A DNA stretch of 46,399 nt, taken from positions 1 through 46,399 of the forward strand of contig QPMI01000110.1 in assembly GCA_004431415.1 (NCBI GenBank), given 5' to 3'. The translations under genes and the position numbers were made by a program. Below the pieces are notes generated by a model. The model was not told where the DNA came from. It searched no databases and saw only the letters and a program-made list of their open reading frames with translations. Positions 2,661 to 32,852 of the stretch are shown here, in pieces. Position 1 is the first letter of the stretch; each line of letters starts with the position of its first letter. This DNA is from Cyanophora paradoxa CCMP329 (taxonomy: Eukaryota; Plantae; Glaucophyta).

Positions 2661-3728
2661 TCAGGCGAGGCCGCGGTGCTTCCTGAAATTATCTATCATG
2701 CCCAGGAGCGTCTTGTCCACCGTGCCGTCGTCCGGACCCACGAGATTTTCTCCGTTGACGGTTTCGCCCTCCCAGTACTCCTTGGATCCGATGCGGAAGG
2801 GGGGCGGCTCCTCGGCCTTGTAGACGTACAGAACGTCCAGAGGGTTCGTAGAGTTGTTGGAAGAATCGATGATAAGGCAGTGGTTATCCTGCGTGTACTT
2901 GTCGAGCAGGTAGTAGAAGGCGCGCTGGGATATGATGTCGCCCCACTCCTTTGCGAGGGCCTCGCGCTGCATCGCCTGCGAGCACTTGAAAATGACAGCC
3001 AGATCAGTATTGGAGCGCAGGACGGGATTGATGCCCTTGGCATACTGCGTCGTGATAAGGGTCATGATTTTGTAGTGGCGCCCCGCCACGAAGAGCTCGT
3101 TGAGGGCCTCGTCGTACCGCAGCCGAGCGTCGGAAATCACGTCGTCGAGCAGCACGAAAAATCGCGGGTCGACGGGATCCTCCTTTCCCGCGAGCACGTC
3201 TTCGGACTTGTTGTGCTGCATGATCGCCTGCTGCCTCCTGAATAAATGGAAGAGCACGCCCGGGTTGTACTTGGGCCAGATGAAGCGCTGGGGTATGTAC
3301 TGCTTCCAGTACCCGTTCAGGCGATCGGTCTGGCTGATCACGATACCCCCCGGGAAGGTGCCGGAGAGGTTGAACATGAGATCGCGGAGGAAGAAGGACT
3401 TGCCCGTGCGCCGCTTGCCGACGCAGACGACGGTGGCGTCGGACTTGACGGTGTTCACGTCGAACCACTTGAGCTCGGGCAGGCAGGCCATGCGCTCGAT
3501 GCCGCCCGTCTTCGAGTTGTCGAGGAAGGCGTTGACCTGCTCGGGCGTGAGCTGCTGGCCGTCCTCTGTCATGCCCATGGCGCAGCTGGCGCCGGCGGCG
3601 GGGGCGGTGCCCGAGCCCGATCCGGTGGCCTGGCCGGCGGGGGCGGGGGCCGGGGCCGCGCCGGCGGGCTGGGCGGCCTGGGGCTTGGCCGCCTTCGGCT
3701 TCTTCGGCTTCTTGGGGTCCTTGGCCAT
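2661..3728 (-). CDS. A32-like (FtsK/HerA superfamily) genome-packaging ATPase
   Basis: Walker A GKRRTGKS, Walker B FVLLDD, GRHYKI arginine motif, TTQY sensor. Likely start MAKDPKKPK at 3728. Confidence 0.93.
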   Translation of the reverse strand: MAKDPKKPKKPKAAKPQAAQPAGAAPAPAPAGQATGSGSGTAPAAGASCAMGMTEDGQQLTPEQVNAFLDNSKTGGIERMACLPELKWFDVNTVKSDATVVCVGKRRTGKSFFLRDLMFNLSGTFPGGIVISQTDRLNGYWKQYIPQRFIWPKYNPGVLFHLFRRQQAIMQHNKSEDVLAGKEDPVDPRFFVLLDDVISDARLRYDEALNELFVAGRHYKIMTLITTQYAKGINPVLRSNTDLAVIFKCSQAMQREALAKEWGDIISQRAFYYLLDKYTQDNHCLIIDSSNNSTNPLDVLYVYKAEEPPPFRIGSKEYWEGETVNGENLVGPDDGTVDKTLLGMIDNFRKHRGLA

Positions 3729-3765
3729 TTTACCCCCTTCATTCAGATTTTCTTGCGACCCTGGA

Positions 3766-4242
3766 ATGAAGATCCTCGGCGTGGATGTGGGGGTCATTAA
3801 TTTCGCCTGGTGCCTCATCGAATTCGATCCGCAGACAAAGGAATCCCAGATTCTCGACTGGCAGAAGATCGCCCTCTTCCCGTCTGCGCGCTGCTGTGGC
3901 CGCCTTGTGGCGCGCCTGGTGGAGGTTACTCGCGGCCATAGCGCCTTCGGCCTTCCCGACCAGATCGCGATCGAGGGCCAGAGGACGGGAATCAATCGCT
4001 GCATCGAGTGCACGCTCCACGCCCTCCTGTACGGGCGTGCGCGGATCGTGAGCCCGCGCGCCATCAAGCACTTCTTCAAGATCTCGAACCCGAGCTACAA
4101 GGAGCGCAAGCGGGGCGCGGTCGACAAGTGCCGCGACCTCGTACCCGCCGAGCTCGCCGACATCGCGGACCGAAACGGCAAGCTCGACGACCTCTGCGAC
4201 GCCTACCTGATCGCCCTCTACGCCGCCCTCAATCCGGTGTGA
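3766..4242 (+). CDS. RuvC-like Holliday junction resolvase (poxvirus A22-like)
   Basis: MKILGVDVGVINFAW, IAIEGQ, YKERKRGAV and KLDDLCDAYLIA give the catalytic D-E-D-D pattern. Confidence 0.9.
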   Translation: MKILGVDVGVINFAWCLIEFDPQTKESQILDWQKIALFPSARCCGRLVARLVEVTRGHSAFGLPDQIAIEGQRTGINRCIECTLHALLYGRARIVSPRAIKHFFKISNPSYKERKRGAVDKCRDLVPAELADIADRNGKLDDLCDAYLIALYAALNPV

Positions 4243-4443: not shown

Positions 4444-4839
4444 ATGGAGCACGCCCACTACTGCTTCAAGTGCCGCTCCAACACCAAGCTCGCCAACGTC
4501 GAGGTGCGTACCAGCAAGAACAACCGCCAGGTGGCCGTCGGCTCCTGCACGCAATGCAGCGGCCGAGTCTCGCGCTTCATGCGCCGGGTTCAGGAGGAGG
4601 GGGCCCGGGAGACCAGCCCGCCGCCGCAGCGCCCGCAGGTGCCCGACGCCGCTGGCCCGGCCGCCGGCTCGAGCCAGGCACCGGCAGCCCCTACGGCCCC
4701 GAAGCCCCCCGCGGCGCCCCGGCAGAAGGCCAAGGCGGCCCCCGCGGAGGGCGACCCGAGCCCGCTCGAGGCCCAGCCCAAGCGCCAGCGCGCGCCGAGG
4801 AAGGCGGCGAGCGAGCCCGCGATTGCAATTCAGATGTGA
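4444..4839 (+). CDS. Zn-ribbon protein (DUF5679-like) with Pro/Ala/Lys-rich tail
   Basis: YCFKCR...SKNNR..AVGSCTQCSGRVSRFM pattern. Confidence 0.75.
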   Translation: MEHAHYCFKCRSNTKLANVEVRTSKNNRQVAVGSCTQCSGRVSRFMRRVQEEGARETSPPPQRPQVPDAAGPAAGSSQAPAAPTAPKPPAAPRQKAKAAPAEGDPSPLEAQPKRQRAPRKAASEPAIAIQM

Positions 4840-11698: not shown

Positions 11699-12478
11699 CT
11701 ACTGCATGGGGGCTGCGTACATAGACTCGGGGTTTAGGTAGGGCTCGAAATCGGCCTCGTTGTCGTAGGGCTTGAAGGCCAGCTCGGGGCGCGCCCGGCG
11801 AAGCGAAAGGCGCCGACCTTGCACTGCTGCACGGCGAGGAAGGACCACTTGAGGCCGAACTTGCCCTCGGGATGGCGTAGGCGGTGTCGATTTTGACGAG
11901 GGCGGCCACCAGGTCGCCGGTGCCGATGGTGGCGCGCTCGGTGATGAGGTAGTTGGACATGTCGACGACGGGGATGGTCTTGCGCTTGCCCGCCATCGTC
12001 TGGGTGCGGATGCGCATGTTGAGGTACTTGTAGAAGGCCTGGCCCGACTCCTTGTCGACCTTGATGCGCACGCTGGGGGTCTGCAGCACCGAGATCTGGT
12101 CCTTGGAGAGGGAGCGGCCGGGCGAGACCTTGAGCTTGGCCTGGTTCTGCTGCACGAACTCGCAGAATTTCGCGTCCAGGGCCTCGAGCAGCTTGAGGAA
12201 CTCGTCCGCGCGGGGTTCGTCTGGCCGTCGACGGCGCTGAGATCGGTGAGGTCCAGCGTGTAGAATCCGCCGTTTTCTTCCATGACGAAGGCCTTCTTCT
12301 CGTCGCTCCACGCCTTGCCTTGCTCTGTGTTGATGCAGGGGTTGATGGTGACCATGGGCGGCGCGTACATCATGAGGCCCTGCAGGCCGTCGTACTTGGC
12401 CTTGATGCGGCCGGTGGCGTCGATCTCGAAGGCGAGCTTGGCGGGGTCGATCTCGTTGGCGTTGCGGACGGTGGCCAT
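11699..12478 (-). CDS. NCLDV-type ssDNA-binding protein (OB-fold), frameshifted
   Basis: YTLDL...FLKLLEALDAKFCEFV...LNMRIR...IGTGDLVAALVKIDTAY...KFGLKW plus acidic tail, typical of the viral SSB layout. Confidence 0.7.
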   Translation of the reverse strand: MATVRNANEIDPAKLAFEIDATGRIKAKYDGLQGLMMYAPPMVTINPCINTEQGKAWSDEKKAFVMEENGGFYTLDLTDLSAVDGQTNPARTSSSSCSRPWTRNSASSCSRTRPSSRSRPAAPSPRTRSRCCRPPACASRSTRSRARPSTSTSTCASAPRRWRASARPSPSSTCPTTSSPSAPPSAPATWWPPSSKSTPPTPSRGQVRPQVVLPRRAAVQGRRLSLRRARPELAFKPYDNEADFEPYLNPESMYAAPMQ

Positions 12479-12500: not shown

Positions 12501-12869
12501 TCAGCCTAGCGCTAGAAAATATTTAAAGGGCGCCCCACCTGACTTCAGCTGAGCGCTCGGGTGATTCAGGTAAAACACGTGTTCAATTCGTCTCACTGGG
12601 GGGGGAAGGGCTTCGATCGCGGCTACGCGAATATTCGAGAGTCTAAATCTGGCGCTGGGGCAGGCGACGGCGTACAGGGTGATCTCGTTCTTGGCGGGAT
12701 TGAGCATGATGTGCTGGAAGCAGTCGCCCTTGCGGCACTCCAGCGAGATGTTGCGCAGCAGCCTGCAGTAGTTGAAGCAGATCTCGCCGTTCTCGTCCAG
12801 ATCCTCTTCCATGGCCTCGTACTCGAAGATGCCGAAGGTCAGGCAGCAGGTGAAGTACTTGGGGCGCAC
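12501..12869 (-). CDS. Hypothetical protein
   Basis: ORF of plausible composition, start codon uncertain. Confidence 0.45.
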   Translation of the reverse strand: MRPKYFTCCLTFGIFEYEAMEEDLDENGEICFNYCRLLRNISLECRKGDCFQHIMLNPAKNEITLYAVACPSARFRLSNIRVAAIEALPPPVRRIEHVFYLNHPSAQLKSGGAPFKYFLALG

Positions 12870-13070
12870 ATTCTCTCGTTGGCTTACGGTTAAAGTGTGA
12901 GGAACCGAGGCCCCGTGCCCCTCTTAAGGCCCCGCGTCAGGTGAGCTTCAGACGAAGTCAGAAAACACGCGTTCAATTTCAGAGGGATACAGAGCCATCA
13001 AGATCAAAGGAAATCATCCTATCGTCAAGGCTAAAGGGGTAGCCGCACTGCTGGTGCAGCTGATCGACCT

Positions 13071-13451
13071 TCATCTGGGGGAGCCCATCTGCCTCCGCAA
13101 GACCCAGATGTTGCACTGATACCCCTCAAAGAATGTGTAGGCGAGGGAGCGGCCTGAGGGAGAGATCGCCGCGCAGAACGAGGCCCACTCGGGTACTTGA
13201 ACATGCGTGCAGTTCAGGCGCCCCGCGGAGAAGGTCACGATGTAGGCCGTCTGTCCGGTTTGGGTCTTGGCGCAGGAGACCAGGGTGAAGGAGAAGCCAT
13301 CGTCGGAGAGCTTCATGAGGAGGATCTTACCGGGGCAGTCCTTGCAGTCGTCTACTTTGCCGTCCTTGAGAACTTCCACCTCGCGGTCAATGGGCTCGCC
13401 GATCACGCGCACGGTGTATTCCTCGACGAAGAACTGGGCAACAAGGGCCAT
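13071..13451 (-). CDS. Beta-rich protein ending in a TolB/PD40-like repeat
   Basis: MALVAQFF... start, C-terminal AAISPSGRSLAYTFFEGYQCNIWVL. Confidence 0.55.
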   Translation of the reverse strand: MALVAQFFVEEYTVRVIGEPIDREVEVLKDGKVDDCKDCPGKILLMKLSDDGFSFTLVSCAKTQTGQTAYIVTFSAGRLNCTHVQVPEWASFCAAISPSGRSLAYTFFEGYQCNIWVLRRQMGSPR

Positions 13452-13555
13452 GTTGCTTGCTGGTTGCGTTGAGAGAGATTGAGAGTGTGAGGGAACGCCG
13501 CGTGCCGCGTGCTTATAGAGGCCGTTCAGGTGAGGTTCAGGTGAGCGCTCACCTG

Positions 13556-13680
13556 AGGAGGGGGGGGGGAGAAGTGACGCGGACGCGAAAGATTCCGTCA
13601 TGGGTTTTTCCGTCATGGGCTGGAACTTGGACCTGGGACTCGGGCCCAAACTCTCCCGGTAAAAAAATAGATTCGAACTT
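13556..13680 (+). repeat. Repeat copy A (TTCCGTCATGGG x2 + GGACTCG heptamers), outer left arm
   Basis: Direct repeat of ~14460-14526 and reverse complement of ~17657-17773. Confidence 0.9.
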
Positions 13681-13711
13681 GGCGCCATTTTCTGATGCTA
13701 GTCTACCCACC

Positions 13712-14377
13712 ATGGAGCCCGCCATCTCCCAGCTGGTCTCCCAGGGCGCCAAGCTCGACAAGGCCCTCAACATCTACCTTCAGCTGATCGAGCTGGCATG
13801 GCCCGAGCCAATGATTGCCCAGGCCTGCAAATCGCTCCACGTGGCGTTCGATGCGCCGTTCTCAGGTGACCCGGATCAGATGACATCCTGGTCCAAGGAG
13901 GAGATAAAGGCAGACTTTGAGGCGCTTTTCTCATTTATGAGCAAGAAGTATGCCGAAATCGAAGCAGCCAAGGATGCCGAAGCCCAAGGCGGTGAAGATG
14001 CAGAAGCCCCAGAAGCCCCAGCCCAAGGCCCTGCCGGCGACCAAGGCACCGAAGTTCAAGGCGCTGGGCCCCTGCAGAGGGCGAAGGCCAAGGCGGACCT
14101 GCGACCGCGTAGGCCCAAGGACATAGCCAAGGAGGCAAGCGGCCACAGGCCGGACTGGCCGGCGCCGGCGCCCTACCGCTACCTCAAGCTGGACAAGAGC
14201 AACGATACCGGCTTCACCAGGAGGAGGTGGCCTGAGCCTCTCAGGTGGCTGGAGCCAAGGGAGATCAAGGCCGGAGGCAGTATCGAGCTAGCGCTAGCGC
14301 TGGGAGGCGGTGGTGGTGCAGACTTGGAGGAGCAGGCCTTGCTAGATACCATCAACTTGGGCAAGGTAGAGCTGTGA
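13712..14377 (+). CDS. Hypothetical protein lying between repeat copies A and B
   Basis: MEPAISQLV... ORF preceded by CCATTTTCTGA. Confidence 0.55.
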   Translation: MEPAISQLVSQGAKLDKALNIYLQLIELAWPEPMIAQACKSLHVAFDAPFSGDPDQMTSWSKEEIKADFEALFSFMSKKYAEIEAAKDAEAQGGEDAEAPEAPAQGPAGDQGTEVQGAGPLQRAKAKADLRPRRPKDIAKEASGHRPDWPAPAPYRYLKLDKSNDTGFTRRRWPEPLRWLEPREIKAGGSIELALALGGGGGADLEEQALLDTINLGKVEL

Positions 14378-14526
14378 TATCTAGCTAGTGCTTGCTAGCG
14401 CTTGCTTAATTAATTAACCTGAAGTTACCTGACATTTACCTGAAAGGTTGCGGAGGTTGCGGACGCGTCACAATTCCGTCATGGGTTTTCCGTCATGGGC
14501 TGGAACTTGGACTCGGGACTCGGCCG
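14376..14526 (+). repeat. Repeat copy B, inner left arm
   Basis: Reverse complement of 17431-17560 (GATATC...TTAATTAA...CCGTCATGGG...CGGCCG). Confidence 0.9.
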
Positions 14527-14754
14527 CAAAACTCGGCGTAAAAAAATACACGTGTTTTTGTCAAGTCTAACGTACCGACTCTGTACCCCTCTATTCGACT
14601 TGAAGGTAATTTCAAGTTGCTATGACATCATACTGAAGTTGCTATGACATTATCGTTATTCACAATCAATGAATACTTTAATGTAGTATAGAACGGTCAT
14701 AGGAGGGGTACGTCGTTCTTGTTCAAGTCTCGAACTTACCAGGAGAATTCCCGG

Positions 14755-15097
14755 TGCGCTGAGCGGGATGCGCTAAGCAGTTGGCTAGGCCCAGAGGCGC
14801 CCCAAGCAGAGAGGGACAGGCCCGTACGGCACCGTAGGGCGGCGGCAAGCGGGTGCCATTACGTACACAGCAGGCGCAGAGCCAGCGTAAGACAGAGAGA
14901 ACAAGAGAACAAGGACGTCGACAGACAGCAAGCGAGCGCCGCGCAGGGCAAGCGAGGGCCCAGGGCTAAAATAAGCGGGCCAGTTGGCAACAACGTGGCA
15001 CCAGGAATAGCAGGCTACAAAGGGTACAAGGCAAGGCAAGCTGCCGGCTTAGAGCCGACGACCAGGGCTAGCTGGGAGTCGGAAAGTGGGCGGCACA
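14755..15097 (-). repeat. LTR (3' LTR in inferred orientation)
   Basis: 343 bp, two visible substitutions relative to 17087-17429. Confidence 0.92.
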
Positions 15098-17086
15098 CGC
15101 TTCCCGCTACAAAAAGCCGTCCTCGGCGCTACGAGCTAAAGGCTGAACTAAAGCTGCGTAGGCGAGGCTGAACGGACTACGAGCCAAAAGCCGGCTACCG
15201 TCCCTGCACAGAAAGCCGTCCTCGGCGCCACAGCGGGCGGGCCAGAGGGGCAAATTAAAATCCATCAGGCCGTCGGCACCAGTATGAGGAACTGGGCCCA
15301 ACAAGGGAAGTTGGGTGAGGGACCCACGACCTGACGCCAGAGCGCGCGGAGCGCCGCCAGCCAACCGGGGGCAAACCCTCTAAATCCCGCCGGAGGGGAA
15401 AACGAGTGCTAGCGCTAGCACTAAGCTCGAATTCGAAACCGGCGCCGCGCCGCAAGCCGCCGGGCTGCGGCGGCGCCGGGTCGAAAGTTCCACAGTGTAG
15501 AAGGTACTTGACGTAGAATGTAGGAGTGTAGGACCGCAGGCTCGATCAGCAGAGCCGCAGCGGCAGAGTACGCGTTGCGGGCCAAGCTCGGCGCAGCTTG
15601 CCGCATTGCGTTGCCAAGTGACTCGGCCAGCGGAGTCACGAGGCGGGGCGATCGGACAGCACAGTAGCGTGTGCAGCCGCGTAAGCGTAGAGCAGGCAAG
15701 CCATGAAGAGTAGAGGCGGCGGGCCAGTCGCACGGGGTCAGGCTCCACAGCAGCGGCAGGCCACTGGTTGCATCATACAGACCCATCGCCAAGGATCCTC
15801 CACGATCGGACGGGATGGCAAACCACGGATACAGCCATCGAGTCCGCCGGTGTACGCAGATGCAGTGCGTAGCCGGGGCTTAGGCAGGCCACCATCGCGG
15901 GACAGGAGACAGCATCAGCGCGGCCCGGAATGATCATCGGTGCTCGCGTGATAGTCGTAGGCAAGAAGACTGGTCGCGGGGCATCACCCAGTGCTGCTTG
16001 CTGACGCTCCTCAACAGACAGGTCCGCTGTCCGCCGTCCAACTTTAGCTATGGCTGCTCACGTCGTCGTAGGACGTCCCAGAGCGCATCCTGTACGCTTC
16101 TGTTGACCTTCGCCCGCCGGACAGGCCTCGGTCAGACCTCCGCCCGCTGAACAGGCCTCGGTCGCTGATCAAACGCCCACGACAGGAAAGAACGACAGTC
16201 CGCACACGCTGGAGATGTGCGTGAAGCGACTGACATCTGGCTTGACGAGCTGGACGTCCCGGAGAAGGGCAGCTACGTCGTCGGAGCCAGGGCAAGGTCT
16301 TGGCATCTTGTCTGCCTTCTCGGTGCGACAGCGCGCACGGTAGAATTGACAACAGATAGATGCGCTTCCTCGCATAGAGATCGCTGTCAAGTGGAGCTGC
16401 GCCGGCTTCCACTGACGCGTACGCAACCCGCAGAGCCGAGAGAGACGCGGAGCCGCACGTCCTCTGGATGCAGGGTGGAGTCAAGTGGAGTGATCCTCAC
16501 GAGGGATGCCACTCGCCGCCGCTGAGCGTGCCTCGGACGGTCCGCAGGCGCCACTGCAGCCGTCGTAGGTGAGACCTCGGGCGCGTACTGGGGCCTTGTT
16601 ATCCCAGGGGCTTTCACGTCGCAGCGGTTTGACTCCATGCGTTCTTCAGATACACTCGCCACCATTGCAATACATTTAGTAGTACGCTGTGGTGTCGTCT
16701 CTCGATACAATACAATACAGTTTCATTCGACATGCGCGCGGGCTGCATCAGCATCTGTTCTTGAGCGCAGCCACGGCACGTTTAGATGACTGTGAGCGCA
16801 TGCGGCTCAATAGACGGGTTGGCGGACGCTTCCCACTACCGAAAGAGTGGTGCGCCGGGGCCGTAAGCAAGAAAAGGCGCGCGCAGTGGCGGGTAGAAAG
16901 GCATGAACCATGCGGTTCGTATTGCTAAGCTCTGCCGCATAGGCGCTTCCCACTACAAGAGAGTGGAGGCCGTACGCGCAAGCCGAGGCAAACGATGGCG
17001 TGCTTGTCCAGGGGTTCGGGCAAGAGCGCAGCGTTCGTCCCCAGGCATACGAGCTAAAAAGTCGAAGCCCAACGCAGCAGCCCCCA

Positions 17087-17429
17087 TGCGCTGGGCGGGA
17101 TGCGCTAAGCAGTTGGCTAGGCCCAGAGGCGCCCCAAGCAGAGAGGGACAGGCCCGTACGGCACCGTAGGGCGGCGGCAAGCGGGTGCCATTACGTACAC
17201 GGCAGGCGCAGAGCCAGCGTAAGACAGAGAGAACAAGAGAACAAGGACGTCGACAGACAGCAAGCGAGCGCCGCGCAGGGCAAGCGAGGGCCCAGGGCTA
17301 AAATAAGCGGGCCAGTTGGCAACAACGTGGCACCAGGAATAGCAGGCTACAAAGGGTACAAGGCAAGGCAAGCTGCCGGCTTAGAGCCGACGACCAGGGC
17401 TAGCTGGGAGTCGGAAAGTGGGCGGCACA
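17087..17429 (-). repeat. LTR (5' LTR in inferred orientation)
   Basis: Followed on the minus strand by TGGGGGCTGCTG, which is PBS-like. Confidence 0.92.
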
Positions 17430-17430
17430 C

Positions 17431-17560
17431 CGGCCGAGTCCCGAGTCCAAGTTCCAGCCCATGACGGAAAACCCATGACGGAATTGTGACGCGTCCGCAA
17501 CCTCCGCAACCTTTCAGGTAATTAATTAAGCAAGCGCTAGCGCTAGCTAGCTAGATATCG
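17431..17560 (-). repeat. Repeat copy C, inner right arm (its other part, 14721-14754, is separated by the LTR element)
   Basis: Inverted copy of B. 14721-14754 plus 17434 onward reconstitutes the sequence seen intact at 17657-17740. Confidence 0.9.
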
Positions 17561-17656
17561 ATACCACCTACTTAGTACTACTTAGTACTACTAGGACACT
17601 AGGACACTAGGACTCTGGGACACTAGGGCATTTGGACATAGGGGGTACCCCGCCGA

Positions 17657-17773
17657 GTTCAAGTCTCGAACTTACCAGGAGAATTCCCGGCCGAGTCCCG
17701 AGTCCAAGTTCCAGCCCATGACGGAAAACCCATGACGGAATCTTTTGCGTCCGCGTCATTTCTCCCCCCTCCT
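17657..17773 (-). repeat. Repeat copy D, outer right arm
   Basis: Inverted copy of A, including GCGTCCGCGTCA.TTCTCCCCCC. Confidence 0.9.
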
Positions 17774-17825: not shown

Positions 17826-18111
17826 ATGGACTTTACTGACTGCGCAGGTATCAAGCAGGAGCCTGAGGACCTTCTCACCGCCGCCGCCTCGGCGCCCAAG
17901 CAGCGCCGCCGCCGTGGGCCCAAGTCCTCTGCTCCGAGCCGAGATCCTGGCGGCTCCGGCGCGCGGGCCGGAGACCGTGGACCTGACGCTGGAGGAGCCG
18001 GCGCGCGGCCCGCCGCGCCTGCTGATCCTTGCGGCGGCGGCGGCCGCGCTCTACTACGCCGCCCGGCGCCTGGGCCCGCAGCTCTCGGGCCTGGTCCGGA
18101 ACCTTTTCTAA
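17826..18111 (+). CDS. Small protein with basic patch and C-terminal TM helix (frameshifted)
   Basis: MDFTDCAGIKQEPE...KQRRRRG joined to ETVDLT...LLILAAAAAALYYAA, with upstream CAATTTTCCA. Confidence 0.55.
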
Positions 18112-18121
18112 GTCTTGCCCA

Positions 18122-18463
18122 ATGGAGGCCCTGCTAGATCTCATGGCCTTTGCCCTGCCCATCTTCTTCCTGGTGGGCCTCAGCCGCATGGAGCGCGAGG
18201 CGCGCCAGCCCGAGCGCGTCGAGCGCGGCCTCACCCCCGCAGAGCAGCGCAACCTCACCGAGTGGGACCTGGCGCTCATGGCCGGCCGCATGCTCGACGG
18301 CAACCGTCTCGAGCCGGGCCACCGCCTCAAGCTAGAGGACGGCGGCATGGCCCTCTGGGACGGCGAGGCCTGGAAGCACGATTCGACGGGCGAGCCGATG
18401 AAGCTGCTCGCCTCCGGCAACAAGTACTGGCGCGGCGACTCGATGGAGTTCCGGCGCCCGTGA
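18122..18463 (+). CDS. Hypothetical protein with N-terminal hydrophobic anchor
   Basis: MEALLDLMAFALPIFFLVGL, with upstream TTTTCTAAG. Confidence 0.6.
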   Translation: MEALLDLMAFALPIFFLVGLSRMEREARQPERVERGLTPAEQRNLTEWDLALMAGRMLDGNRLEPGHRLKLEDGGMALWDGEAWKHDSTGEPMKLLASGNKYWRGDSMEFRRP

Positions 18464-18511
18464 TTGCTAGTGATTTTCTGGTCCCTCTTCTAGCCCTTCT
18501 ACCAGCAAAGA

Positions 18512-18796
18512 ATGCCCGACCCCTCGCCCGACCCCGCCGCAGGTGCCGAGAGCGCGGGCAGCTCGGACGAGTACTCCGAGCTCACGGATCCCGACCCCGA
18601 CGAGCCCGGCGACGCCTTCGCGACGGAGAACGAGCGCTCCCTCATGCGCGTCTACGAGGCGCTGCGCGAGGCGATCTACTGGGAGGATCCCCGCCTGGGA
18701 ACCCTGATGAACTTTGCCAAGTTCGCCGAGTTCATGTTCGCTATGACCGTGCCCTTCACCCGAGTCGTGCTCTGGGATAGGAACAGGAACTGGTAA
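18512..18796 (+). CDS. Hypothetical acidic protein
   Basis: Clean ORF with upstream GATTTTCTGG. Confidence 0.6.
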   Translation: MPDPSPDPAAGAESAGSSDEYSELTDPDPDEPGDAFATENERSLMRVYEALREAIYWEDPRLGTLMNFAKFAEFMFAMTVPFTRVVLWDRNRNW

Positions 18797-20381: not shown

Positions 20382-21700
20382 TCAGTGGTGCAGGTGCCGG
20401 AAGCGCGCGTTGTCCTCGGCCTCCTCGCGCGCCGCCTGCTCCTCCGCCGCGTCGATCTTTGCCCGCGAGGCCTCGCGCGCCGCCCGCCTTGCGTACGAGG
20501 TGGGCACCGGCGCCCGCCGGTAGCTGTAGCCGAGGCCCTTCGCCAGCTCCACGGTCCCGTCCTCGAACGCCCGCCAGCTCTCCACGGCCTCCGCCGCGCT
20601 CATCCGCTCCGCGCGGAAGCCCGCCTCCAGCTCGGCGCGGAAGGCGGTGGCCTCCTGCAGGCGCTGGGCCCAGAGGCCCTGGCGCCGCGCCTCCGCCTCG
20701 CGCGCCTGGCGCGCCGCCAGCGCCCGCCGCTCGGCCCCCTGCTGGGCCCCGAAGCCCATGATCGCGCTGAGGATGGCGCCGGGGCCGGGGATGAACGCGT
20801 CCGGGTCGGGAGCGGCGGCGAAGGCGGCGGGGACGGGGCTGCGGTCGGCGAGGGAGAAGGGGACGGGGCTGGGGCCGGCGCCGTCGGAGGGGGCCGAGCT
20901 CCCGTAGCCGCTCGGGCCCGCGCCGCCGTTCGCCGGGGTACCCTGCCCTTGGATCAGGAGGGGGGCGAGGGGAGGGGGGGTACAGGGAAGGCGGGGGGTA
21001 CGCGGGGCCGGACCTGGCGCGGCAGCATCTCGTCGATGCGCTGCTGGCCGGCGTGCTGCTGGCCGGCGTGCTGCTGGCCGTGCGAGGAGGAGGGCGGCGG
21101 GGGCGGGACGAAGGCGGGGGCCGAGTTGCGGGTGCGCTTGCCCCTGCCGCGGATCGAGGCCTTGACGGGGAAGGGGCCGTTCTCCGGGTCCGCCGGCTCG
21201 AAGAACTGGATGGCCTGCAGCGCCGGCTGGCTCTCGCCGAGGGAGAGGGGGCCTTGGGGACGATGCCGCGGATGTAGGTCTGCCAGATGCCGCCGGCCCT
21301 GTAGGAGAAGAGGCGGCACCTGGGGCCGAAGGCGGCGATGGTCTCGTCCAGCTCGCCGTTCTCGACGTCGGCGGCGACGGCGGCGGCGGCGTCCGGGCCC
21401 TCCGTGCGCGAGATGTACTCGCAGATGCCCGCCACGCTCGTCATGCCGCCCTCCGTCTCCGAGCCGACGAGGTAGGTGGTGGGGTCGACGACGCAGTGGG
21501 TGATGACGAAGCGGGTGAGGGTGCAGGAGGCCGTCTCCTGCCAGAAGGCGAGGCGCTTCGCCCGCAGCCACACCGGCTCGAAGGACTGGATGCAGGAGGC
21601 CTGGCGGCCACCTGCGGCGCGGGCGACGTTAGCGCGTACGACGTCGGGACGGGCGGGAAGGTGCGCGGCTTCGAATCCAGCGGCTCCCCGCGAAGCTGCC
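20382..21700 (-). CDS. Hypothetical protein: globular N-part, Pro-rich middle, coiled-coil C-terminus (multiple frameshifts, start undefined)
   Basis: Coherent segments in ORFs 20083..21573, 20954..21571 and 20382..20759. Confidence 0.45.
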
Positions 21701-22753
21701 TGCGGCCCAGTGAGCGTGCTGCGAGCGGGAGGTGGGAGGGATTGGGCGGGCGGGCCTGCGTCCAGCGCTGAAACGTAGCTCCACTGATGCTATCCGCGAT
21801 GCGCGTAGCCCGCGACTGGCTGCGGACAAGGGAGGGCTTAGCTAGGACAAGAACGGGTGTGGGGCGCGGGCTGGAGGCGCGGGGAGGCGAGCCGGAGCCG
21901 CCGAATCGATGCGCGGGCTTGAGAACGAGATCTAGAAGCGTGCGCAAGTCGCCGCGAACGTCGGCTCGAGTTGCGGAAGGCGCGGCGGCCAATCTCGGCA
22001 CCTGCTCAGAGACCAAATGTCAGCGGACGCGGGCGAATCGAGCGCGAGGTTGCGGGACATGTTCTAGGTGCTAAATGCAAGGATAGAGCGGCAAGAGAGC
22101 GAGCTGGCACCTGCGGGATGCGGCGGAGTGCTCCGGCTCGGGCGCCATCGAGCTTTCGAAGGTCCGCGGCCGGCGCGAGCGACCCTGCGCGTGGCGGCGT
22201 GAGTGCGGCGTCGAGAGAGCTTTCCAGCGCCCAAAATCTGAGGTCCGGAGCTAGCCGTGGTGCGGAGAAAGAGGTTGCGAAGTGAGGCGCACCTCCGAAT
22301 CGAAAGGAGCGAGGCGGCGGCTCTCCGGGCTGAGCGGAATGCAAGCTAGTGCCTCTGGCAAGTGCTGCAAGGAGCGCTGGGCCCGGGCGCTGCGAGATGC
22401 GCTGCCCGGGCGCTTTTTTTCGGGTTGGGGTACTGTGTTTTGAGTCGAAACACGTGGAGCAACCGCGTGAGCCCAAAACTTTCTGAGCTTAGGAGCAAAG
22501 GCGGTCGAGCGCTCGGCCGCGCAAGCTAGCTCCGGCGCGCTCTGCCTTCTCTCTACACGTGTCGCATTCGCGTGCGCTCAAAACTTTCTAAGCTTCGGTC
22601 AAGCAAGGGGCTAGCGCTTCCGAAGTTCTACGCGCGCGCCTCCCCGTCCGCCGGGCCGACGGTCTGCGCGTCACATCGTCCGCTGCGCCAAGAAGGAGAG
22701 ATCAAGACGGTGTCAACCGGGTCTAGTTGAGCGCTTAAGGTCGGACCAAAGCC

Positions 22754-22803
22754 TGTCCCGACCCTCCCAGATCTTTAAATTAATATCTCAGAAGGTCGAG
22801 ACA
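22754..22803 (+). repeat. 50-bp palindrome with AT-rich centre (duplicate copy)
   Basis: TGTCCCGACCCTCCCAGAT-CTTTAAATTAAT-ATCTCAGAAGGTCGAGACA. Confidence 0.9.
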
Positions 22804-22893
22804 GCAGTCCAGACGTCGACTATAGCTAGCCAACAGACGTCGACTAGCCTAGTAGATCTAGAATTTTCCAAGCCTAGCTATAGAGAGACGACC

Positions 22894-24052
22894 ATGGCAA
22901 CCGGACGCGTGTCTCTCGACGTCGACGCCTTCCTGGCCCGTATGCCCGGGCCCGGGTACAGCAGATAGATCTGAGCGAGCAGGAGTGCAGCTTTTTCGTT
23001 CGATTCCCTCTCGTCGAAGTCCAGAAGGCCTGCAGCCCGACCCTGGGACGGCTTTCTGCGTCTTCCACCCGCCCTGCATCACCCCAGCCACTTCTCGGGT
23101 GCCGAGGATGAGACGAGCACTGCGGCAGCCTGCGCCTTTGCAACCAAGTTCGGAGGCTTCACTTTCTCTCGCCCCTTGGATAATGGATTCAAGGCTGCCT
23201 ACGTCCTACAGAGCCCGGAGGCTTGCGATCTCATGGCATGGTTCTTTGGGAGCTCGAGCGGCCTGGAGCTCGGTGTGGATGGCACCGGGGGCTACGTTCT
23301 GCGGGGGCCGGCGCCCGGGCCGCGAGCGGAGCTCCTCCCCACTCCATCCAGAAGCTCGGCGCCCCGCGCTAAGCCCATCCCGGAGCCGGGCGCTCTCCTG
23401 GATTCGAGCCCAAGCCTGCCGGCCTTGGAGCGGCTCCTGGACCGCCTACGCAAGAACAAGGCGGTGAGGGACGAGATCTGGAAGGCGGGGGCAGAGCTGC
23501 GCGCGGACCTTGGCCTGCACGACGCCCGCCGCGTTCAGCACCTTGGAGTCGAGCCCGACGGGTCCATCACCCTCGTCCTGGGCGGGAGTCAGCCGGGGGC
23601 GCCGGCGGCTCGAATCTCCATCCAGGCGCACGGTATTGAAGTCGAGCTCGAGGGGGAGGGGACCGGAGGGGAGTCGGGCAGCGTGGCACAGACCCGCTAT
23701 GTGACCGATCCCTCGCAGCCTGTCGCCTTCGACATTGCCCTCCCCTCCCTCCTGATCGCGCTCGAGTCGACGGGCCTGGAGGCTTGCGTCAATGCAGTGG
23801 ATGAACGCCACCTCTCGTGCAAGATCCTTACCTCCGCATTCGGGGCGCTGGAGCAGAACCCGAGATCCGCTCAGCCGCAGGTCGACGTCATCTGCTCGGG
23901 ACTCAACACGGGGAAGACGCAGGCGCTGATCGATGCGTACCTGGACCCGGCCCTTGCAGGCGGCTGGCGAGTGATCCTCGTGACTTGCCGCCGGGCCTTC
24001 TCCCGCGACCTCAAGCGTCGCATTGATGCTGCGGAGTTGTCAAAGGACGCCG
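22894..24052 (+). pseudogene. 5'-only duplicate of the helicase gene, truncated after motif Ia
   Basis: Same as 25373 onward up to ELSKDA, then runs into duplicated upstream sequence. Confidence 0.8.
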
Positions 24053-25232
24053 GCTCGAAGGACTGGATGCAGGAGGCCTGGCGGCCACCTGCGGCGCGGG
24101 CGACGTTAGCGCGTACGACGTCGGGACGGGCGGGGAAGGTGCGCGGCTTCGAATCCAGCGGCTCCCCGCGAAGCTGCCTGCGGCCCAGTGAGCGTGCTGC
24201 GAGCGGGAGGTGGGAGGGATTGGGCGGGCGGGCCTGCGTCCAGCGCTGAAACGTAGCTCCACTGATGCTATCCGCGATGCGCGTAGCCCGCGACTGGCTG
24301 CGGACAAGGGAGGGCTTAGCTAGGACAAGAACGGGTGTGGGGCGCGGGGCTGGAGGCGCGGGGAGGCGAGCCGGAGCCGCCGAATCGATGCGCGGGCTTG
24401 AGAACGAGATCTAGAAGCGTGCGCAAGTCGCCGCGAACGTCGGCTCGAGTTGCGGAAGGCGCGGCGGCCAATCTCGGCACCTGCTCAGAGACCAAATGTC
24501 AGCGGACGCGGGCGAATCGAGCGCGAGGTTGCGGGACATGTTCTAGGTGCTAAATGCAAGGGATAGAGCGGCAAGAGAGCGAGCTGGCACCTGCGGGATG
24601 CGGCGGAGTGCTCCGGCTCGGGCGCCATCGAGCTTTCGAAGGTCCGCGGCCGGCGCGAGCGACCCTGCGCGTGGCGGCGTGAGTGCGGCGTCGAGAGAGC
24701 TTTCCAGCGCCCAAAATCTGAGGTCCGGAGCTAGCCGTGGTGCGGAGAAAGAGGTTGCGAAGTGAGGCGCACCTCCGAATCGAAAGGAGCGAGGCGGCGG
24801 CTCTCCGGGCTGAGCGGAATGCAAGCTAGTGCCTCTGGCAAGTGCTGCAAGGAGCGCTGGGCCCGGGCGCTGCGAGATGCGCTGCCCGGGCGCTTTTTTT
24901 CGGGTTGGGGTACTGTGTTTTGAGTCGAAACACGTGGAGCAACCGCGTGAGCCCAAACTTTCTGAGCTTAGGAGCAAAGGCGGTCGAGCGCTCGGCCGCG
25001 CAAGCTAGCTCCGGCGCGCTCTGCCTTCTCTCTACACGTGTCGCATTCGCGTGCGCTCAAAACTTTCTAAGCTTCGGTCAAGCAAGGGGCTAGCGCTTCC
25101 GAAGTTCTACGCGCGCGCCTCCCCGTCCGCCGGGCCGACGGTCTGCGCGTCACATCGTCCGCTGCGCCAAGAAGGAGAGATCAAGACGGTGTCAACCGGG
25201 TCTAGTTGAGCGCTTAAGGTCGGACCAAAGCC

Positions 25233-25282
25233 TGTCCCGACCCTCCCAGATCTTTAAATTAATATCTCAGAAGGTCGAGACA
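25233..25282 (+). repeat. 50-bp palindrome upstream of the helicase gene
   Basis: Same element, 90 bp before the ATG. Confidence 0.9.
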
Positions 25283-25372
25283 GCAGTCCAGACGTCGACT
25301 ATAGCTAGCCAACAGACGTCGACTAGCCTAGTAGATCTAGAATTTTCCAAGCCTAGCTATAGAGAGACGACC

Positions 25373-28300
25373 ATGGCAACCGGACGCGTGTCTCTCGACG
25401 TCGACGCCTTCCTGGCCCGTATGCCCGGGCCCGGGGTACAGCAGATAGATCTGAGCGAGCAGGAGTGCAGCTTTTTCGTTCGATTCCCTCTCGTCGAAGT
25501 CCAGAAGGCCTGCAGCCCGACCCTGGGGACGGCTTTCTGCGTCTTCCACCCGCCCTGCATCACCCCAGCCACTTCTCGGGTGCCGAGGATGAGACGAGCA
25601 CTGCGGCAGCCTGCGCCTTTGCAACCAAGTTCGGAGGCTTCACTTTCTCTCGCCCCTTGGATAATGGATTCAAGGCTGCCTACGTCCTACAGAGCCCGGA
25701 GGCTTGCGATCTCATGGCATGGTTCTTTGGGAGCTCGAGCGGCCTGGAGCTCGGTGTGGATGGCACCGGGGCTACGTTCTGCGGGGGCCGGCGCCCGGGC
25801 CGCGAGCGGAGCTCCTCCCCACTCCATCCAGAAGCTCGGCGCCCCGCGCTAAGCCCATCCCGGAGCCGGGCGCTCTCCTGGATTCGAGCCCAAGCCTGCC
25901 GGCCTTGGAGCGGCTCCTGGACCGCCTACGCAAGAACAAGGCGGTGAGGGACGAGATCTGGAAGGCGGGGGCAGAGCTGCGCGCGGACCTTGGCCTGCAC
26001 GACGCCCGCCGCGTTCAGCACCTTGGAGTCGAGCCCGACGGGTCCATCACCCTCGTCCTGGGCGGGAGTCAGCCGGGGCGCCGGCGGCTCGAATCTCCAT
26101 CCAGGCGCACGGTATTGAAGTCGAGCTCGAGGGGAGGGACCGGAGGGGAGTCGGGCAGCGTGGCACAGACCCGCTATGTGACCGATCCCTCGCAGCCTGT
26201 CGCCTTCGACATTGCCCTCCCCTCCCTCCTGATCGCGCTCGAGTCGACGGGCCTGGAGGCTTGCGTCAATGCAGTGGATGAACGCCACCTCTCGTGCAAG
26301 ATCCTTACCTCCGCATTCGGGCGCTGGAGCAGAACCCGAGATCCGCTCAGCCGCAGGTCGACGTCATCTGCTCGGGACTCAACACGGGGAAGACGCAGGC
26401 GCTGATCGATGCGTACCTGGACCCGGCCCTTGCAGGCGGCTGGCGAGTGATCCTCGTGACTTGCCGCCGGCCTTCTCCCGCGACCTCAAGCGTCGCATTG
26501 ATGCTGCGGAGTTGTCAAAGGACGCCGTGCTTTACATGGACATCAAGAAGCCACCGGAGAGCTCAAAGGGATCGCATGGCAAGTGGGGCTTCCGCCATGA
26601 GGAGTGCAGGTGCGTCGTCATCACATGGGACTCGCTGCACAAGGTGCTCGAGGACTGGGAGGGCTGGTCGACGGCGCCGCTACTGGTCGTGCTGGACGAG
26701 CTCTCCTCCCTCACGAAGCACCTCACCTCGAGCGGCACCCTCGAGCCCACCGGCCTGCACCTAGGTATGCGGTCAGTGCCTCGAAACGCGCGCTGCGTGG
26801 GCCTATGGCGCGGCGTGATGAAGGCATCGCGCATCGTGGCGATGGACGGCTTCGTTCGGTCGGTCGATCTCGCGTACCTGGCAGAGTCGGCGCAGGAGGT
26901 CGGGGCGCGCCTGGGGCTCCTGTACAACTCGCATCGCACCTGCGACTGGAAGATGCGCGTGTCAGACAGCCCGGCGCACGTCGAGGCGGACATCATGGCG
27001 CTGTGCAGACCGGGGCGCTGCCGGGCGATGATCATTGCAGAGACGCCGGCCAAGGCGATCGAGATGCAGGAGAAGATTGCGAAGCAGGCGCTGGAGCAGC
27101 TCAGCCTGGGCGGCGCTCAGTACGTGACTCAGCTCGAGGCAGGGCCCGAGGACGGCAGCGGCGCACCGTTCACGATCGGGCTCATCGTTGGGCAGGCCAA
27201 GGAGAAGAGCGTGCGCTTCACGAACGACGGCCCAGTGCGCATCGTGTCGATCGATGTGTCTGAGGAGGGCGCGTACAAGGCCTGCGACGTGCTCATCGCA
27301 ACTTCCGCGCTCGGGGCAGGCGTGGACTTTTCGGACGCGCACTTTGACAAGGTCTACGGCGTGTTCCAGGCAGAGCCCGCGCAGCTGGAGGCGGACGACA
27401 TCGTGCAGCTGCTGTTTCGAGTCAGAAGGCTGCGCAAACGCAGCACGCCCGACGGAGAGCACCTGCTCGTCGCCGTGCGCAAGAACCGGACGCCCTCGGT
27501 TGCGGTCGGCGCGGCGGCTGCGCACTGGCGTGAGAGCGACGACGACGAGAGCTCGGACGACATGCAGCGCTACCTGGACCTGAAGGCTAGCCACCGCGGG
27601 AGCCGCCGCGCCGGCATGCCCACTCGGCGCCTCGCAGTGGCAGCGCGCCTGCGGCTGATGTCGACCTGCGCGCTGATGAACGTGCAAGTCACGGAGGATC
27701 AAAACCGAGCGGACCGAAGCAGGAGAAGGAGCAGCGGCTGCGCGAGATCAGGAGCGTGCTGGAGGCGGGCGCGCTGGAGCCCGTCGATCTGTGGAGCACG
27801 GTGCTGGCCTGGAGGCAGTCCCGCGAGTCTCTCGCTAAGCTGGACATCGAGAAGGTTGCTTCGCTTGCTCGCACGTCGATCGCCGCGTTCCTGGCCAAGG
27901 ATCCGAGCGAGCTGACCGAAGGAGACGTCGCCTGGATGTGGGATTCGTTCTACTCCATCCCGCTCACTGCCGTGGTCACGCTGGTGCTGAAGCATGGCGC
28001 GGACGTTGCCGAGATCGTGCCTACTGCTGAGCGCCTCAAGGTATCGAAGGTCGTCGCGCTGTTCAAGAAACTCTTCGGCTGGCGGGGTATGGAAAGCTCG
28101 CGGGGCGTGCTCTGTGGTCGGACGAAGCCTACGCGGCCCTGGCGTCGCCGGAGGGTCGGGAGGCGTACGCGGCTCTGCAGAGTCTGGACGAGCGCGCGCC
28201 CCGCTTCGATGCAGCGGACGGTGAGAAGAAGCGGCTCTCGCAGCAGTCTTGGCAAGTCATCAAGTACCTGCTGGAGAAGTACCTCGGAGTGAGACGCGCT

Positions 28301-28586: not shown

Positions 28587-28636
28587 TGTCTCGACCTTTT
28601 GAGATATTAATTTAAAGATCTGGGAGGGTCGGGACA
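28587..28636 (-). repeat. 50-bp palindrome downstream of the helicase gene, inverted orientation
   Basis: Reverse complement matches 25233-25282 with one mismatch. Confidence 0.9.
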
Positions 28637-28920
28637 TTGCGAGGGCGGACGAGAGTGAGGGCATGCACTCTCTATGTGTCCCGACCTTTTCTGAACAACT
28701 CATGATTGCCGTATCATCGATCTGCATTTACTCACTTCGTTCTCTGTCGCTTGCACATGCGCGGTGTGGGATTACTAATTAGATCTAGTCTCCCTAGCCC
28801 TCTGCGGCCGCCTTCCTGCCCCCCTGCAAAGAGCAGCTCAACCAAATCCTGTGGGGTCTGATTCATTGCAGACTCGCCTTCCCCGCCTGGGCCTGAGCTA
28901 CACCAAGCTACGGTGAGTCC

Positions 28921-29268
28921 GACCAAGAGACGTGTCCGGACCCTCCCTACTTTCTTTATAGATTATTGGAAAGGTCCGGACACTAGAGGAGGGAGGGCGT
29001 ACATAAGTAGTCTGACCAAGAGACGTGTCCCGACCCTCCCAGATCTTTAAATTAATATCTGAGAGGGTCGAGACACTAGAGGAGGGCGTACATAAGTAGT
29101 CTGACCAAGAGACGTGTCCCGACCCTCCAGATCTTTAAATTAATATCTGAGAGGGTCGAGACACTAGAGGAGGGCGTACATAAGTAGTCTGACCAAGAGA
29201 CGTGTCCCGACCCTCCCAGATCTTTAAATTAATATCTGAGAGGGTCGGGACACTAGAGGAGGGCGTAC
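28921..29268 (+). repeat. Tandem array of four ~89-bp units, each carrying the 50-bp palindrome
   Basis: Palindromes at 28933-28982 (divergent), 29026-29075, 29115-29163 and 29203-29252, with near-identical spacers. Confidence 0.93.
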
Positions 29269-30680: not shown

Positions 30681-31432
30681 ATGGCGCGGACACGCGAGTC
30701 CGACGTGCTGTACAACAACGGCCCCATCATCGTGAGATCCTACAGCGGACCGTGGACTTGGACGACGCACAATCCGATCTGCACCGGCGGCGATGGGCGA
30801 TGGGCCCCGATTCGGGGAGCGGATCGCCCGGGGAGAACTTTATGGAACGCGTGCTGTACCTCGTGCGCTGGATACGAGATAAGTTTAACGACGATCAAGA
30901 GTTTCCAGATCAAAACACCATCGGCGCAGCACGTTTCATGGGTATGACGATCAATCCACGCAATCATGGCAGGCGAGAACGCAGGGATCTGAACGGCGAT
31001 TGGGCGGACCTACAAGCACTGTGGATGGCCTTTGCGAACCGCAAGAGCCAGATCCTCGCTCTGCCCGCGCGGGTGCAGGAGCGTATCATTGACTTTGTGG
31101 CACCGTGGCGCTTCGAGAGCCTTGACCCGCAGACTGTGCAGCCCCGCTTCCTCAGACGACTGCGAAACGCCTTCTACCACCTGGCGCTGAGCGACGGCCA
31201 GTACTTCACGCCTCAGAGAATCGATCACGGTGAATTCGGTATACCCCCCGAGTGGGCAAACTTTGGCATGGTACCCCCGCCGCGGCCCCTCCTCTACGGC
31301 CCCCCCTCCCCCTCACCTGAGCAGCGTGAGTCACTCAAGCGTCAGAGGGAGGTACGCGAATGGATGGACGACACCAGTCACTGGGTACAGGGCGAGGCCG
31401 AGTTACGCAAGTTCGCTAGGCTCGGGCAGTAA
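30681..31432 (+). CDS. Hypothetical protein, paralogue family member 2, frameshifted
   Basis: ENFMERVLYLVRWIRDKF and SQILALPARVQERIIDFV. Confidence 0.6.
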
Positions 31433-31544
31433 CCGCAGGGGGTACAGCATTCAGTTAGAGTCCGAGCCTAGTTAGAGGCCGGGAGGCCCCCGGGGGGTAC
31501 ATTGGACGTGTTAGTCCCCCTGCCTCCCCGAATGCAATATAACA

Positions 31545-31814: not shown

Positions 31815-31882
31815 GAAACGAGCTAAAGGTGCAATTGCACAGCGGTTGCAGCCCTAAAGGTGCTCTGCGCGCGCGCGTACCT

Positions 31883-32741: not shown

Positions 32742-32852
32742 CTGTACGTATATATACGAGGGCCAACAATGGGCCAAACGCGAAAAGTCAACTCCGAGAG
32801 CTCGAGACTCGGAAGTGACGCTTGGATTGCGGAGGTTCTTATAACCGCCGGG

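Follow-up and report, generated by a model that had tools for sequence, protein, structure and literature searches.

Nuclear DNA viruses such as baculoviruses and herpesviruses carry internal imperfect palindromes (hr elements and oriS/oriL, respectively) with AT-rich centres and iterated factor-binding sites, which serve as both enhancer and origin, and herpes origins are bound by UL9. Mriyaviruses encode no polymerases and are predicted, from gene content alone, to replicate in the nucleus by HUH-dependent rolling circles; some also have a UL9-like helicase, a trait of the Yaraviridae (accessible sections of PMC11253617). Those sections describe no origin, repeat element or other cis-acting site for mriyaviruses. 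Endogenous Mriyaviricetes have been reported in a glaucophyte assembly (bioRxiv 10.1101/2025.04.19.649669, section 10); they are embedded in host sequence and probably belong to the same virus family and host group as the genome described here, and the available portion of that text mentions no repeats, subtypes or copy number.

We analysed a locus of four repeat arms (A> B> <C <D) in the window, that is, the whole 46,399-nucleotide stretch of contig QPMI01000110.1 from Cyanophora paradoxa CCMP329. Judged from its sequence, the locus is likely a control site that activates adjacent genes, and it may help to start viral DNA copying. Our preferred explanation, held with about evenly balanced confidence, is an internal control locus of the enhancer/origin type whose arms are kept alike by recombination.

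The viral genome and its copies in the host

By its gene content, the window is a mriyavirus-like genome resident in the glaucophyte C. paradoxa. Its complement comprises an HUH endonuclease, a UL9-like helicase and, as in Mriyaviricetes, capsid, A32 ATPase, VLTF3, A22/RuvC and YqaJ/PDDEXK proteins; the genome size (approximately 41–42 kb, with a circular map) lies within the 35–45 kb of that class. Pfam scans of 41 open reading frames (ORFs) matched Capsid_N, Pox_A32, Pox_A22 (E = 6.5e-07), YqaJ and a TFIIB zinc ribbon, and detected no DNA or RNA polymerase. HUH motifs I–III are present as the pieces ITIQT, HAHIL and YITK, which are spread over different frames of positions 1–900. In tblastn searches of 80 related loci, HUH matched three (best E = 3e-07) and the window capsid none; the gene at 980–2059, which we take to be VLTF3 from its position, has a match in 73. 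Matches to 'RuvC' in these loci were antisense overlaps with the ATPase and were left out of the counts. The ATPase has gamadvirus-like neighbours, and relatives with gamadvirus-like gene order have at most ten proteins in common per locus. No close loci were found in IMG/VR for the ORF between arms A and B or for the capsid.

The C. paradoxa gene set contains approximately 25–27 copies of the virus. All four named contigs with genes from both window ends show a permuted order in which the two ends are adjacent, a full-length contig has its break between genes 30800 and 36281, and the break points of other copies appear to fall at window positions 31.4–36.3 kb; the window ends themselves do not overlap. 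The initial annotation had proposed fused genome termini as one of several possibilities for the locus, which fails for the host-borne copies: gene order is continuous through the locus in 12 of them. In 12 of 27 cases, one or two accession numbers separate a member of the 13712 gene family from the 18122 gene. Virion ends could possibly lie inside the provirus, in the manner of a phage cos site. A candidate 1-kb inverted repeat, each arm of which would hold the A–B ORF, was rejected because the 27 accessions include only one close pair.

Anatomy of the four-arm locus

The four arms are real (Table 1; with tighter limits, A 13561–13669 and D 17657–17772), and the longest perfect arm (91 bp) compares with 15–22 bp in 20 dinucleotide shuffles. 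Once the LTR element is removed, all four repeat copies that had been proposed are present, with a 54-bp core that is the same in B, C and D and different in A. Likewise borne out were inverted arms B and C around an AT-rich spacer with a direct repeat: the two are 100% complementary over 91 bp (14436–14526 and 17431–17521), plus 41 bp at 88%, and GC content is 38% at 14527–14720. Arms A and D do have an extension of their own, as claimed, but this description is incomplete. The layout is two by two, with outer extensions common to A/D and to B/C and inner extensions common to A/B and to C/D (A versus D, 88% inverted match over 102 bp; A versus B, 85% direct match over 92 bp; C identical to D over 34 bp and 55 bp, one stretch on each side of the insertion).

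Table 1 Features of the four-arm locus (window coordinates)
Feature	Position	Strand	Description
Leftward viral gene	13071–13451	−	126 aa; confined to the window's subtype; covered by RNA-type contig 12548–13592
Promoter-like block of leftward gene	13470–13556	−	CACCTGA repeats, TATAAG, CTCACAC; putative promoter
Arm A	13556–13669	+	G-run, three TGACG/CGTCA boxes, CTYGG heptamers, A-rich inner box
A–B gene region	13712–14377	+	221 aa as assembled; RNA-type contig 13563–14423
Arm B	14376–14548	+	AT-rich outer part (also the 3' flank of the gene region), then core
AT-rich spacer	14549–14720		Degenerate palindrome centred near 14665; 10-bp hairpin at 14597–14620; 14-bp direct repeat
Arm C, inner piece	14721–14754	−	Identical to D 17657–17690; ends in left target duplication CCGG
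LTR element	14755–17429	− (probable)	2,675 bp, non-coding host element; LTRs 14755–15097 and 17087–17429
Arm C, outer piece	17434–17559	−	Preceded by right target duplication 17430–17433
C–D gap	17560–17656		97 bp, short tandem repeats, no ORF; bridged by X15 contig 17455–17741
Arm D	17657–17773	−	Followed, after 54 bp, by the start codon of the rightward gene (17826)

CTYGG heptamers and three TGACG boxes are present in each arm. Of the five places in the window where three such boxes fall within 45 bp, four are the arms, and all eight occurrences of CCGTCATGGG in the window are within the arms. Another arm motif, TTGCGGAGGTT, has four occurrences (none expected) in other intergenic regions, and CTYGG arrays lie beyond the arms at 33064 and 35087–35578.

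Without the LTR element, B–spacer–C forms an imperfect palindrome of 505 bp whose AT-rich centre is self-complementary, and, owing to its complementary arms, it folds far more stably than shuffled sequence (−195.5 versus −57.8 ± 3.4 kcal/mol in 40 shuffles). The spacer, in which the 14-bp repeat AGTTGCTATGACAT starts at 14615 and 14637, itself folds well (z = −4.0 to −4.3; 0 of 300 shuffles equally stable; rank 5 of 257 180-bp windows). Palindrome, AT-rich centre and iterated sites together give the anatomy of an hr/ori-type element. The iteron-origin reading of the initial annotation suits this structure as a candidate origin-like or control locus. At the centre, a 6-bp stem with a 7-nt loop sits inside a 228-bp stretch of imperfect pairing between the perfect arms, and the gene region that separates A from B, which the initial annotation had not mentioned, is set against only 97 bp between C and D; equal arms about a perfect centre, as joined terminal inverted repeats would have, were thus not found. 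The hairpin at 14597–14620 may resemble a phage nick site; two CRESS-virus nick nonamers are absent from the window. Gene orientation diverges here locally, as had been noted (11.7–13.5 kb minus, 17.8–18.8 kb plus), but the cumulative GC skew has no turning point at the locus. Rfam gave one sub-threshold match, outside the arms, and a promoter scan of the locus with a bacterial model, not apt for this genome, found nothing.

A second hairpin family, of 89-bp tandem units at 28916–29268 with further copies at 28587, 22754 and 25233, folds better (z = −7.0 and −5.8) and adjoins the UL9-like helicase gene. For these two reasons it is an equally good origin candidate, and the origin may be there.

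Arm C is split by a host element with the properties of a non-autonomous LTR retroelement—343-bp LTRs with two differences and TG...CA ends, a 4-bp target duplication (CCGG, 14751–14754 and 17430–17433) and no pol—which we take to be TRIM/LARD-like. The minus strand is suggested by a TGG stretch next to the right LTR that looks like a primer site, 18 scanned frames of 61 listed gave no Pfam match, and RNA-type contigs run from the LTR end into other flanks. The insertion postdates the palindrome, which it breaks in this single copy.

That a host element did land here, that the ends of the two nested inverted pairs are related and that a 4-bp GATA direct repeat loosely borders B–C would also suit an insertion into the provirus of nested host elements of foldback or MITE-like type. 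We consider this highly improbable. The initial annotation had tied such a family to repeats abundant in the host, and the contigs of run X4 show no such abundance: only 61 contigs and 19 loose ends fall on 14280–14900. The depths track one subtype, with values of 934 for the A variant, 1,047 for the spacer and 1,098 for the B junction that agree with one another and approximately with the 1,415 of the adjacent viral gene. Moreover, A–D has no bordering target duplication, and the outer part of B is native to the ORF in other subtypes.

The nested inverted pairs could alternatively make A–D or B–C an invertible segment that flips as a switch, and X4 and X14 contigs indeed join the ORF end to a C-type arm (14386 to 17532). 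The depth of this joint (1,497; 284) equals that of a 3-bp deletion marking another subtype; the joint is therefore a subtype allele, not an isoform, with the proviso that contig words (31 letters) are shorter than the arms and would hide flips. No recombinase family was detected among the 41 ORFs scanned, a B–C flip would move only a near-symmetric non-coding spacer, and host models P0003, P0007 and P0008 link the A–B gene to sequence right of D in the window orientation, all of which makes a switch very unlikely.

Transcripts and subtypes

The X15 contigs were treated as RNA-type, a guess backed by GT..AG joints, since none of the listed runs is recorded as RNA; they are unstranded and come from a single run. 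They flank A on both sides, overlapping within A with no clean starts outside it. The leftward gene has approximately six host gene models, each adjoining the A–B gene, and its promoter-like block has counterparts at 12880–12975 and 930–1030. The A–B region likely consists of two overlapping ORFs, a helical one from 13712 and a basic 134-aa one from 13974: all X4 depth has one extra base at 14071–14072 relative to the window, and the frame from 13974 is the N terminus of host model P0004. The A–B protein has no Pfam or Atlas match; its N-terminal 93 aa, which have seven unnamed relatives, were modelled as four helices (pLDDT 76) with no PDB match at E ≤ 0.001. The RNA-type contig of this region ends at 14423, inside the outer part of B, and X15 has no RNA-type cover over the spacer (14453–14886) or the gene next to D (17925–18141).

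At least three haplotypes occur in the alga, and the core of the window accounts for about one-third of copies by contig depth (approximately 1,050 versus 3,200–3,900). Two sister haplotypes appear, from their contig ends, to have different TGACG-containing cores that are likewise repeated in the same places: loose ends after B (14458) and before the end of D (17772) have the inverted 14-mer GCGTCATTTACGTC in common, and a direct 15-mer containing CGTCA is common to the loose ends at 13589 (within A) and 14482 (within B); these comparisons were made by eye and assume both ends of a pair to be in one haplotype. Repeats that are identical within a subtype and changed between subtypes, with TGACG always kept, point to selection on a host-factor site.

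Beyond the alga, the arm pattern had no match in IMG/VR, and five metagenome matches were rejected as unrelated tandem duplicates without a protein match. The A–D region had no blastn match in the 80 related loci, only six of which (the loci being partial) have a comparable repeat. L062 and L067 have an unchanged 40-bp inverted repeat around unrelated ORFs, with flanking genes pointing outward, and L071 has two arm–iteron–AT-core palindromes between divergent genes. Distant mriyavirus relatives possess inverted repeats of their own, internal and placed where divergent genes meet.

These observations bear on a simpler explanation, in which the arms are no more than promoter and terminator modules that template switching or recombination has duplicated and inverted, with B and C as by-products and no role in replication. 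Arm A sits between two transcribed units, the outer part of B coincides with a transcript 3' end, arm motifs recur before other genes and a better hairpin family exists elsewhere in the window; one sister haplotype (depth 1,812) even keeps the outer part of B without the core. This explanation, which would make the value of the locus modest, leaves unaccounted for the self-complementary spacer, the exact match among B, C and D next to flanks that have diverged, and the inverted cores of another sequence that a sister haplotype seems to have at these positions; we regard it as fairly unlikely.

Proposed control locus, possible resolution site and known systems

In the enhancer/origin-type locus that we prefer, TGACG triplets would bind host bZIP (ATF/CREB/TGA-type) factors in the nucleus, and A and D would drive the genes pointing away from each. 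B–spacer–C would provide an easily melted AT-rich centre and, when single-stranded, a long hairpin; it could be the loading or priming place for the viral helicase or for HUH-started rolling-circle replication. Recombination between arms would maintain their likeness within one subtype, while the subtypes diverge from each other.

Alternatively, B–C might be a concatemer-resolution site at which the A22-like resolvase cuts circular or head-to-tail DNA into linear, hairpin-ended virion genomes, placing virion ends at B–C and provirus ends elsewhere. The virus encodes both Pox_A22 and HUH, its map is circular and genes point outward from the locus; the closest structural match of mriyavirus HUH is SIRV1 Rep, and ITR is among the labels of the Fig. 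2 legend (both from the accessible part of PMC11253617). In SIRV1, which relies on a resolvase as well, Rep nicks at the terminal hairpins (PMC5062984). The stem-loop centre within its mismatched surroundings is nevertheless poor for cruciform extrusion, the arms are unequal, host-borne copies continue through the locus, and reported mriyavirus assemblies are circular or have direct repeats (PMC11253617, same part; 6 of 7 in PMC13768754), so we judge such a site improbable. More speculative, and likewise improbable, is that B–C turns HUH-made rolling-circle concatemers into unit genomes with hairpin-ended virion DNA through the A22-like resolvase, with the TGACG cores of the subtypes defining replication-specificity groups among the approximately 25 copies; in these viruses, the smallest relatives of giant viruses, this would be a rudivirus- or poxvirus-like step hidden inside a circular map.

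Since the host is cultured and has approximately 25–27 viral copies, with RNA-type contigs on viral genes, the palindrome, the 89-bp hairpins and the viral HUH, helicase and resolvase are directly testable. The enhancer/origin-type locus resembles hr elements and oriS/oriL in palindrome architecture, with no sequence relation expected; it differs in its gene-enclosing set of four nested arms and in having a core specific to the subtype. The genome as a whole resembles Mriyaviricetes (Yaraviridae and 'Gamadviridae'; available sections of PMC11253617) in gene set, size and circular map, and differs in that the present copy is carried by the host, is spliced and has taken up an LTR insertion. Retrotransposons nested in endogenous DNA viruses of protists are known (PMC10120064, accessible part), whereas the element here is non-coding and placed in a repeat arm. 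Rudivirus and poxvirus hairpin termini and concatemer junctions likewise combine an HUH Rep, a Holliday-junction resolvase and an imperfect AT-rich palindrome at the junction, but their inverted repeats are long, identical and genome-ending (PMC5062984), in contrast to arms that here are short, unequal and internal in host-borne copies.

Anatomy and haplotypes of the four-arm repeat

The four-arm locus (arms A–D) is real and, in the available parts of the literature on mriyavirus and yaravirus repeats or origins and on Cyanophora endogenous viruses (including 10.64898/2026.06.19.733378, 10.1101/2022.07.28.501842, PMC10120064 and PMC13768754), previously undescribed, viral control elements as such being already known; the genome maps of PMC11253617, bioRxiv supplements, the yaravirus paper and most subscription papers could describe such repeats. 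All parts proposed in the initial annotation (four arms, spacer repeat and LTR element) were present where it had placed them. The longest perfect inverted match was 91 bp (versus 15–22 bp in shuffled sequence; n = 20 shuffles), and with the LTR element removed A–D spans ~1.55 kb and B–C 505 bp. The order is X-core-P, gene region, Y-core-P′, spacer, Q-core-Y, 97 bp, Q-core-X (X and Y, outer extensions of A/D and B/C; P/P′ and Q, inner parts of A/B and C/D), and all four arms carry three TGACG boxes (the core of bZIP sites) and one CTYGG array. The B–C spacer (38% GC) is self-complementary (z about −4), its fold coming fifth when 257 windows were scanned coarsely, each against 8 shuffles.

The element inserted in arm C, flanked by duplicated CCGG, has TG...CA termini and 343-bp LTRs that differ at two sites. 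The arm sequence on either side of it matches arm D; the arms are therefore older than the insertion. Unlike the arms, the element continues into other flanks in contigs. This non-coding element is matched at 15690–16590 by abundant spliced RNA-type contigs, which have GT..AG joints and differ in sequence from the window copy.

In sequencing run X4, seen as assembled contigs, 14280–14900 is matched by only 61 contigs, with 19 loose ends (contigs leaving the window sequence). Single-contig depths, which are not copy numbers, came to 1,047 over the spacer and 1,098 at the B junction; the A variant stood at 934, the 13071 gene (genes are named by window position) at 1,415 and genes right of D at 3,217–3,884. 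The repeats track one virus subtype with roughly a third of copies. A host MITE family, which the initial annotation had named, along with absence of the repeats from related viral genomes, as what would overturn its reading of the locus, is most improbable given the few X4 contigs and this subtype-level depth. At the 3′ end of the ORF between A and B, X4 divides into three branches: B-type (depth 1,456), Y without core (1,812) and C-like Y (1,497). By-eye comparison showed one 14-mer, GCGTCATTTACGTC, at both the 14458 and the 17772 loose end, inverted between the two; the ends at 13589 and 14482 have in common a 15-mer containing CGTCA, in direct orientation. If each pair represents one haplotype, the core would change between haplotypes while positions and the TGACG motif are kept. 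An invertible switch appears improbable. CAACTTGAAA is common to the minus strand of the spacer hairpin (14597–14620) and the sister-haplotype sequence replacing A (loose end 13557), possibly by chance.

Carrier virus and its host copies

Pfam searches of 41 ORFs identified Pox_A32, Pox_A22, Capsid_N, YqaJ, DUF5767 and Herpes_ori_bp, with HUH motifs within 1–900, and this gene content corresponds to the mriyavirus core in the available parts of PMC11253617. Near-identical proteins occur under Cyanophora paradoxa accessions (at least 27 for the A–B gene, at least 24 for the 18122 gene and at least about 25 for the ATPase), and the stretch is present in 20 sequencing runs of one organism from 16 studies. 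The carrier virus itself is not new, because a glaucophyte assembly with embedded Mriyaviricetes regions was previously reported (bioRxiv 10.1101/2025.04.19.649669, available in part). The many window frameshifts look like assembly errors, since short-read contigs carry different indels, one of which turns the 221-aa ORF between A and B into two overlapping frames. Contigs of X15, another run, skip a GT..AG intron (18469–18543) in a viral gene. The fibre-like gene has internal direct repeats (66 bp and about 125 bp), and the helicase 5′ region a 2.48-kb tandem duplication (99.4%), either real or an assembly artefact.

The suggestion that provirus ends are joined at the four-arm locus did not hold: when gene-model numbers stand in for position, the A–B and 18122 genes lie 1–2 numbers apart in 12 of the 27 cases listed, and the 13071 gene adjoins the A–B gene in five loci. 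Genes from 36–41 kb lie beyond the ATPase in all four named contigs with genes from both window ends (tig00021036, 20824, 20941 and 20734), and the window therefore represents a circular map in permuted form. Contig tig00021036 carries the 30800 gene at one end and the 36281 gene at the other, 40 genes apart, and in none of six accessions was the 36281 gene within 12 numbers of the 30800 gene. Window 31400–36300 is likely the end region of other host copies, the break at 31.4–36.3 kb being placed directly by this single contig only; that region also contains another set of inverted repeats, bearing related heptamers. The window ends (1–16 and 46147–46399) are both inside minus-strand reading frames and are adjacent on four other contigs, as in a circular or tandem form of the virus. 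Mriyaviruses are not known to have an integrase.

Coordinates of repeats and related features
Feature	Position	Remark
Arm A	13556..13669	+
Arm B	14376..14548	+
Arm C		−, split by LTR element
Arm D	17657..17773	−
LTR-element GT..AG joints	near 16019–16070, 16129–16185, 16321–16433	RNA-type contigs
(ACTTGGG)x7	33064	31.4–36.3 kb region
TTGCGGAGGTT	31559(−), 32827(+)	31.4–36.3 kb region
Inverted pair	35087–35178 / 35491–35577	around A-rich spacer
50-bp hairpin family	28916–29268, 28587–28636, 22754–22803, 25233–25282	first range, about four in 89-bp tandem
Helicase duplication	21570–26527	
Fibre-like gene repeats	41240–41391, 41483–41701	
40-bp inverted repeat	L062 431–472 / 1583–1624; L067 271–314 / 1201–1244	
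L071 palindromes	4518–4721, 11989–12199	
L075 hairpin	540–690	

Possible transcription, candidate functions and related loci

X15, tentatively read as RNA with its GT..AG joints in support, is a single unstranded run; its contigs cover 12548–13592 and 13563–14423, with a C–D depth of about 9, and none covers 14453–14886. The pattern in this one run agrees with A being a divergent promoter region and the outer part of B a 3′ end. Duplicated promoters only would be a doubtful reading of the arms. A virus that lacks polymerases has to rely on the host nucleus (PMC11253617).

With about even confidence, we regard the four-arm locus as an enhancer/origin-type control site, each functional step of which we infer: A and D would serve genes pointing outward, B–spacer–C might melt, or fold on the displaced strand, leading to replication loading or priming, and recombination would homogenise the arms. 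Counting against this reading, 50-bp hairpins with AT-rich loops flank the UL9-like helicase gene on both sides and are the strongest folds in the window; the family is a rival origin candidate, and its members in 89-bp units fold better. A resolvase site yielding hairpin-ended virion DNA, for which the available parts of PMC5062984 offer a rudivirus analogy, seems unlikely.

Among 80 related IMG/VR loci around the ATPase (33–52% identity), none contained the A–D sequence, and eight had inverted arms of at least 22 bp (six after setting aside L078, a TA microsatellite, and the distant L080). Two divergent marine mriyavirus-like contigs (L062 and L067), to which the motif is confined, carry the same 40-bp inverted repeat, which encloses unrelated ORFs, with outward-pointing genes on both sides and coding sequence further out. 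L071 has, between divergent genes, two 200-bp palindromes in which arms and 8-bp iterons accompany an AT core. Inverted repeats lying internally at divergent junctions are thus a recurring feature of this virus group. L075 has a long near-perfect hairpin with repeats alongside. Nuclear DNA viruses often build an enhancer-origin from an AT-rich palindrome together with iterons and factor sites, as in baculovirus hr and herpes ori.
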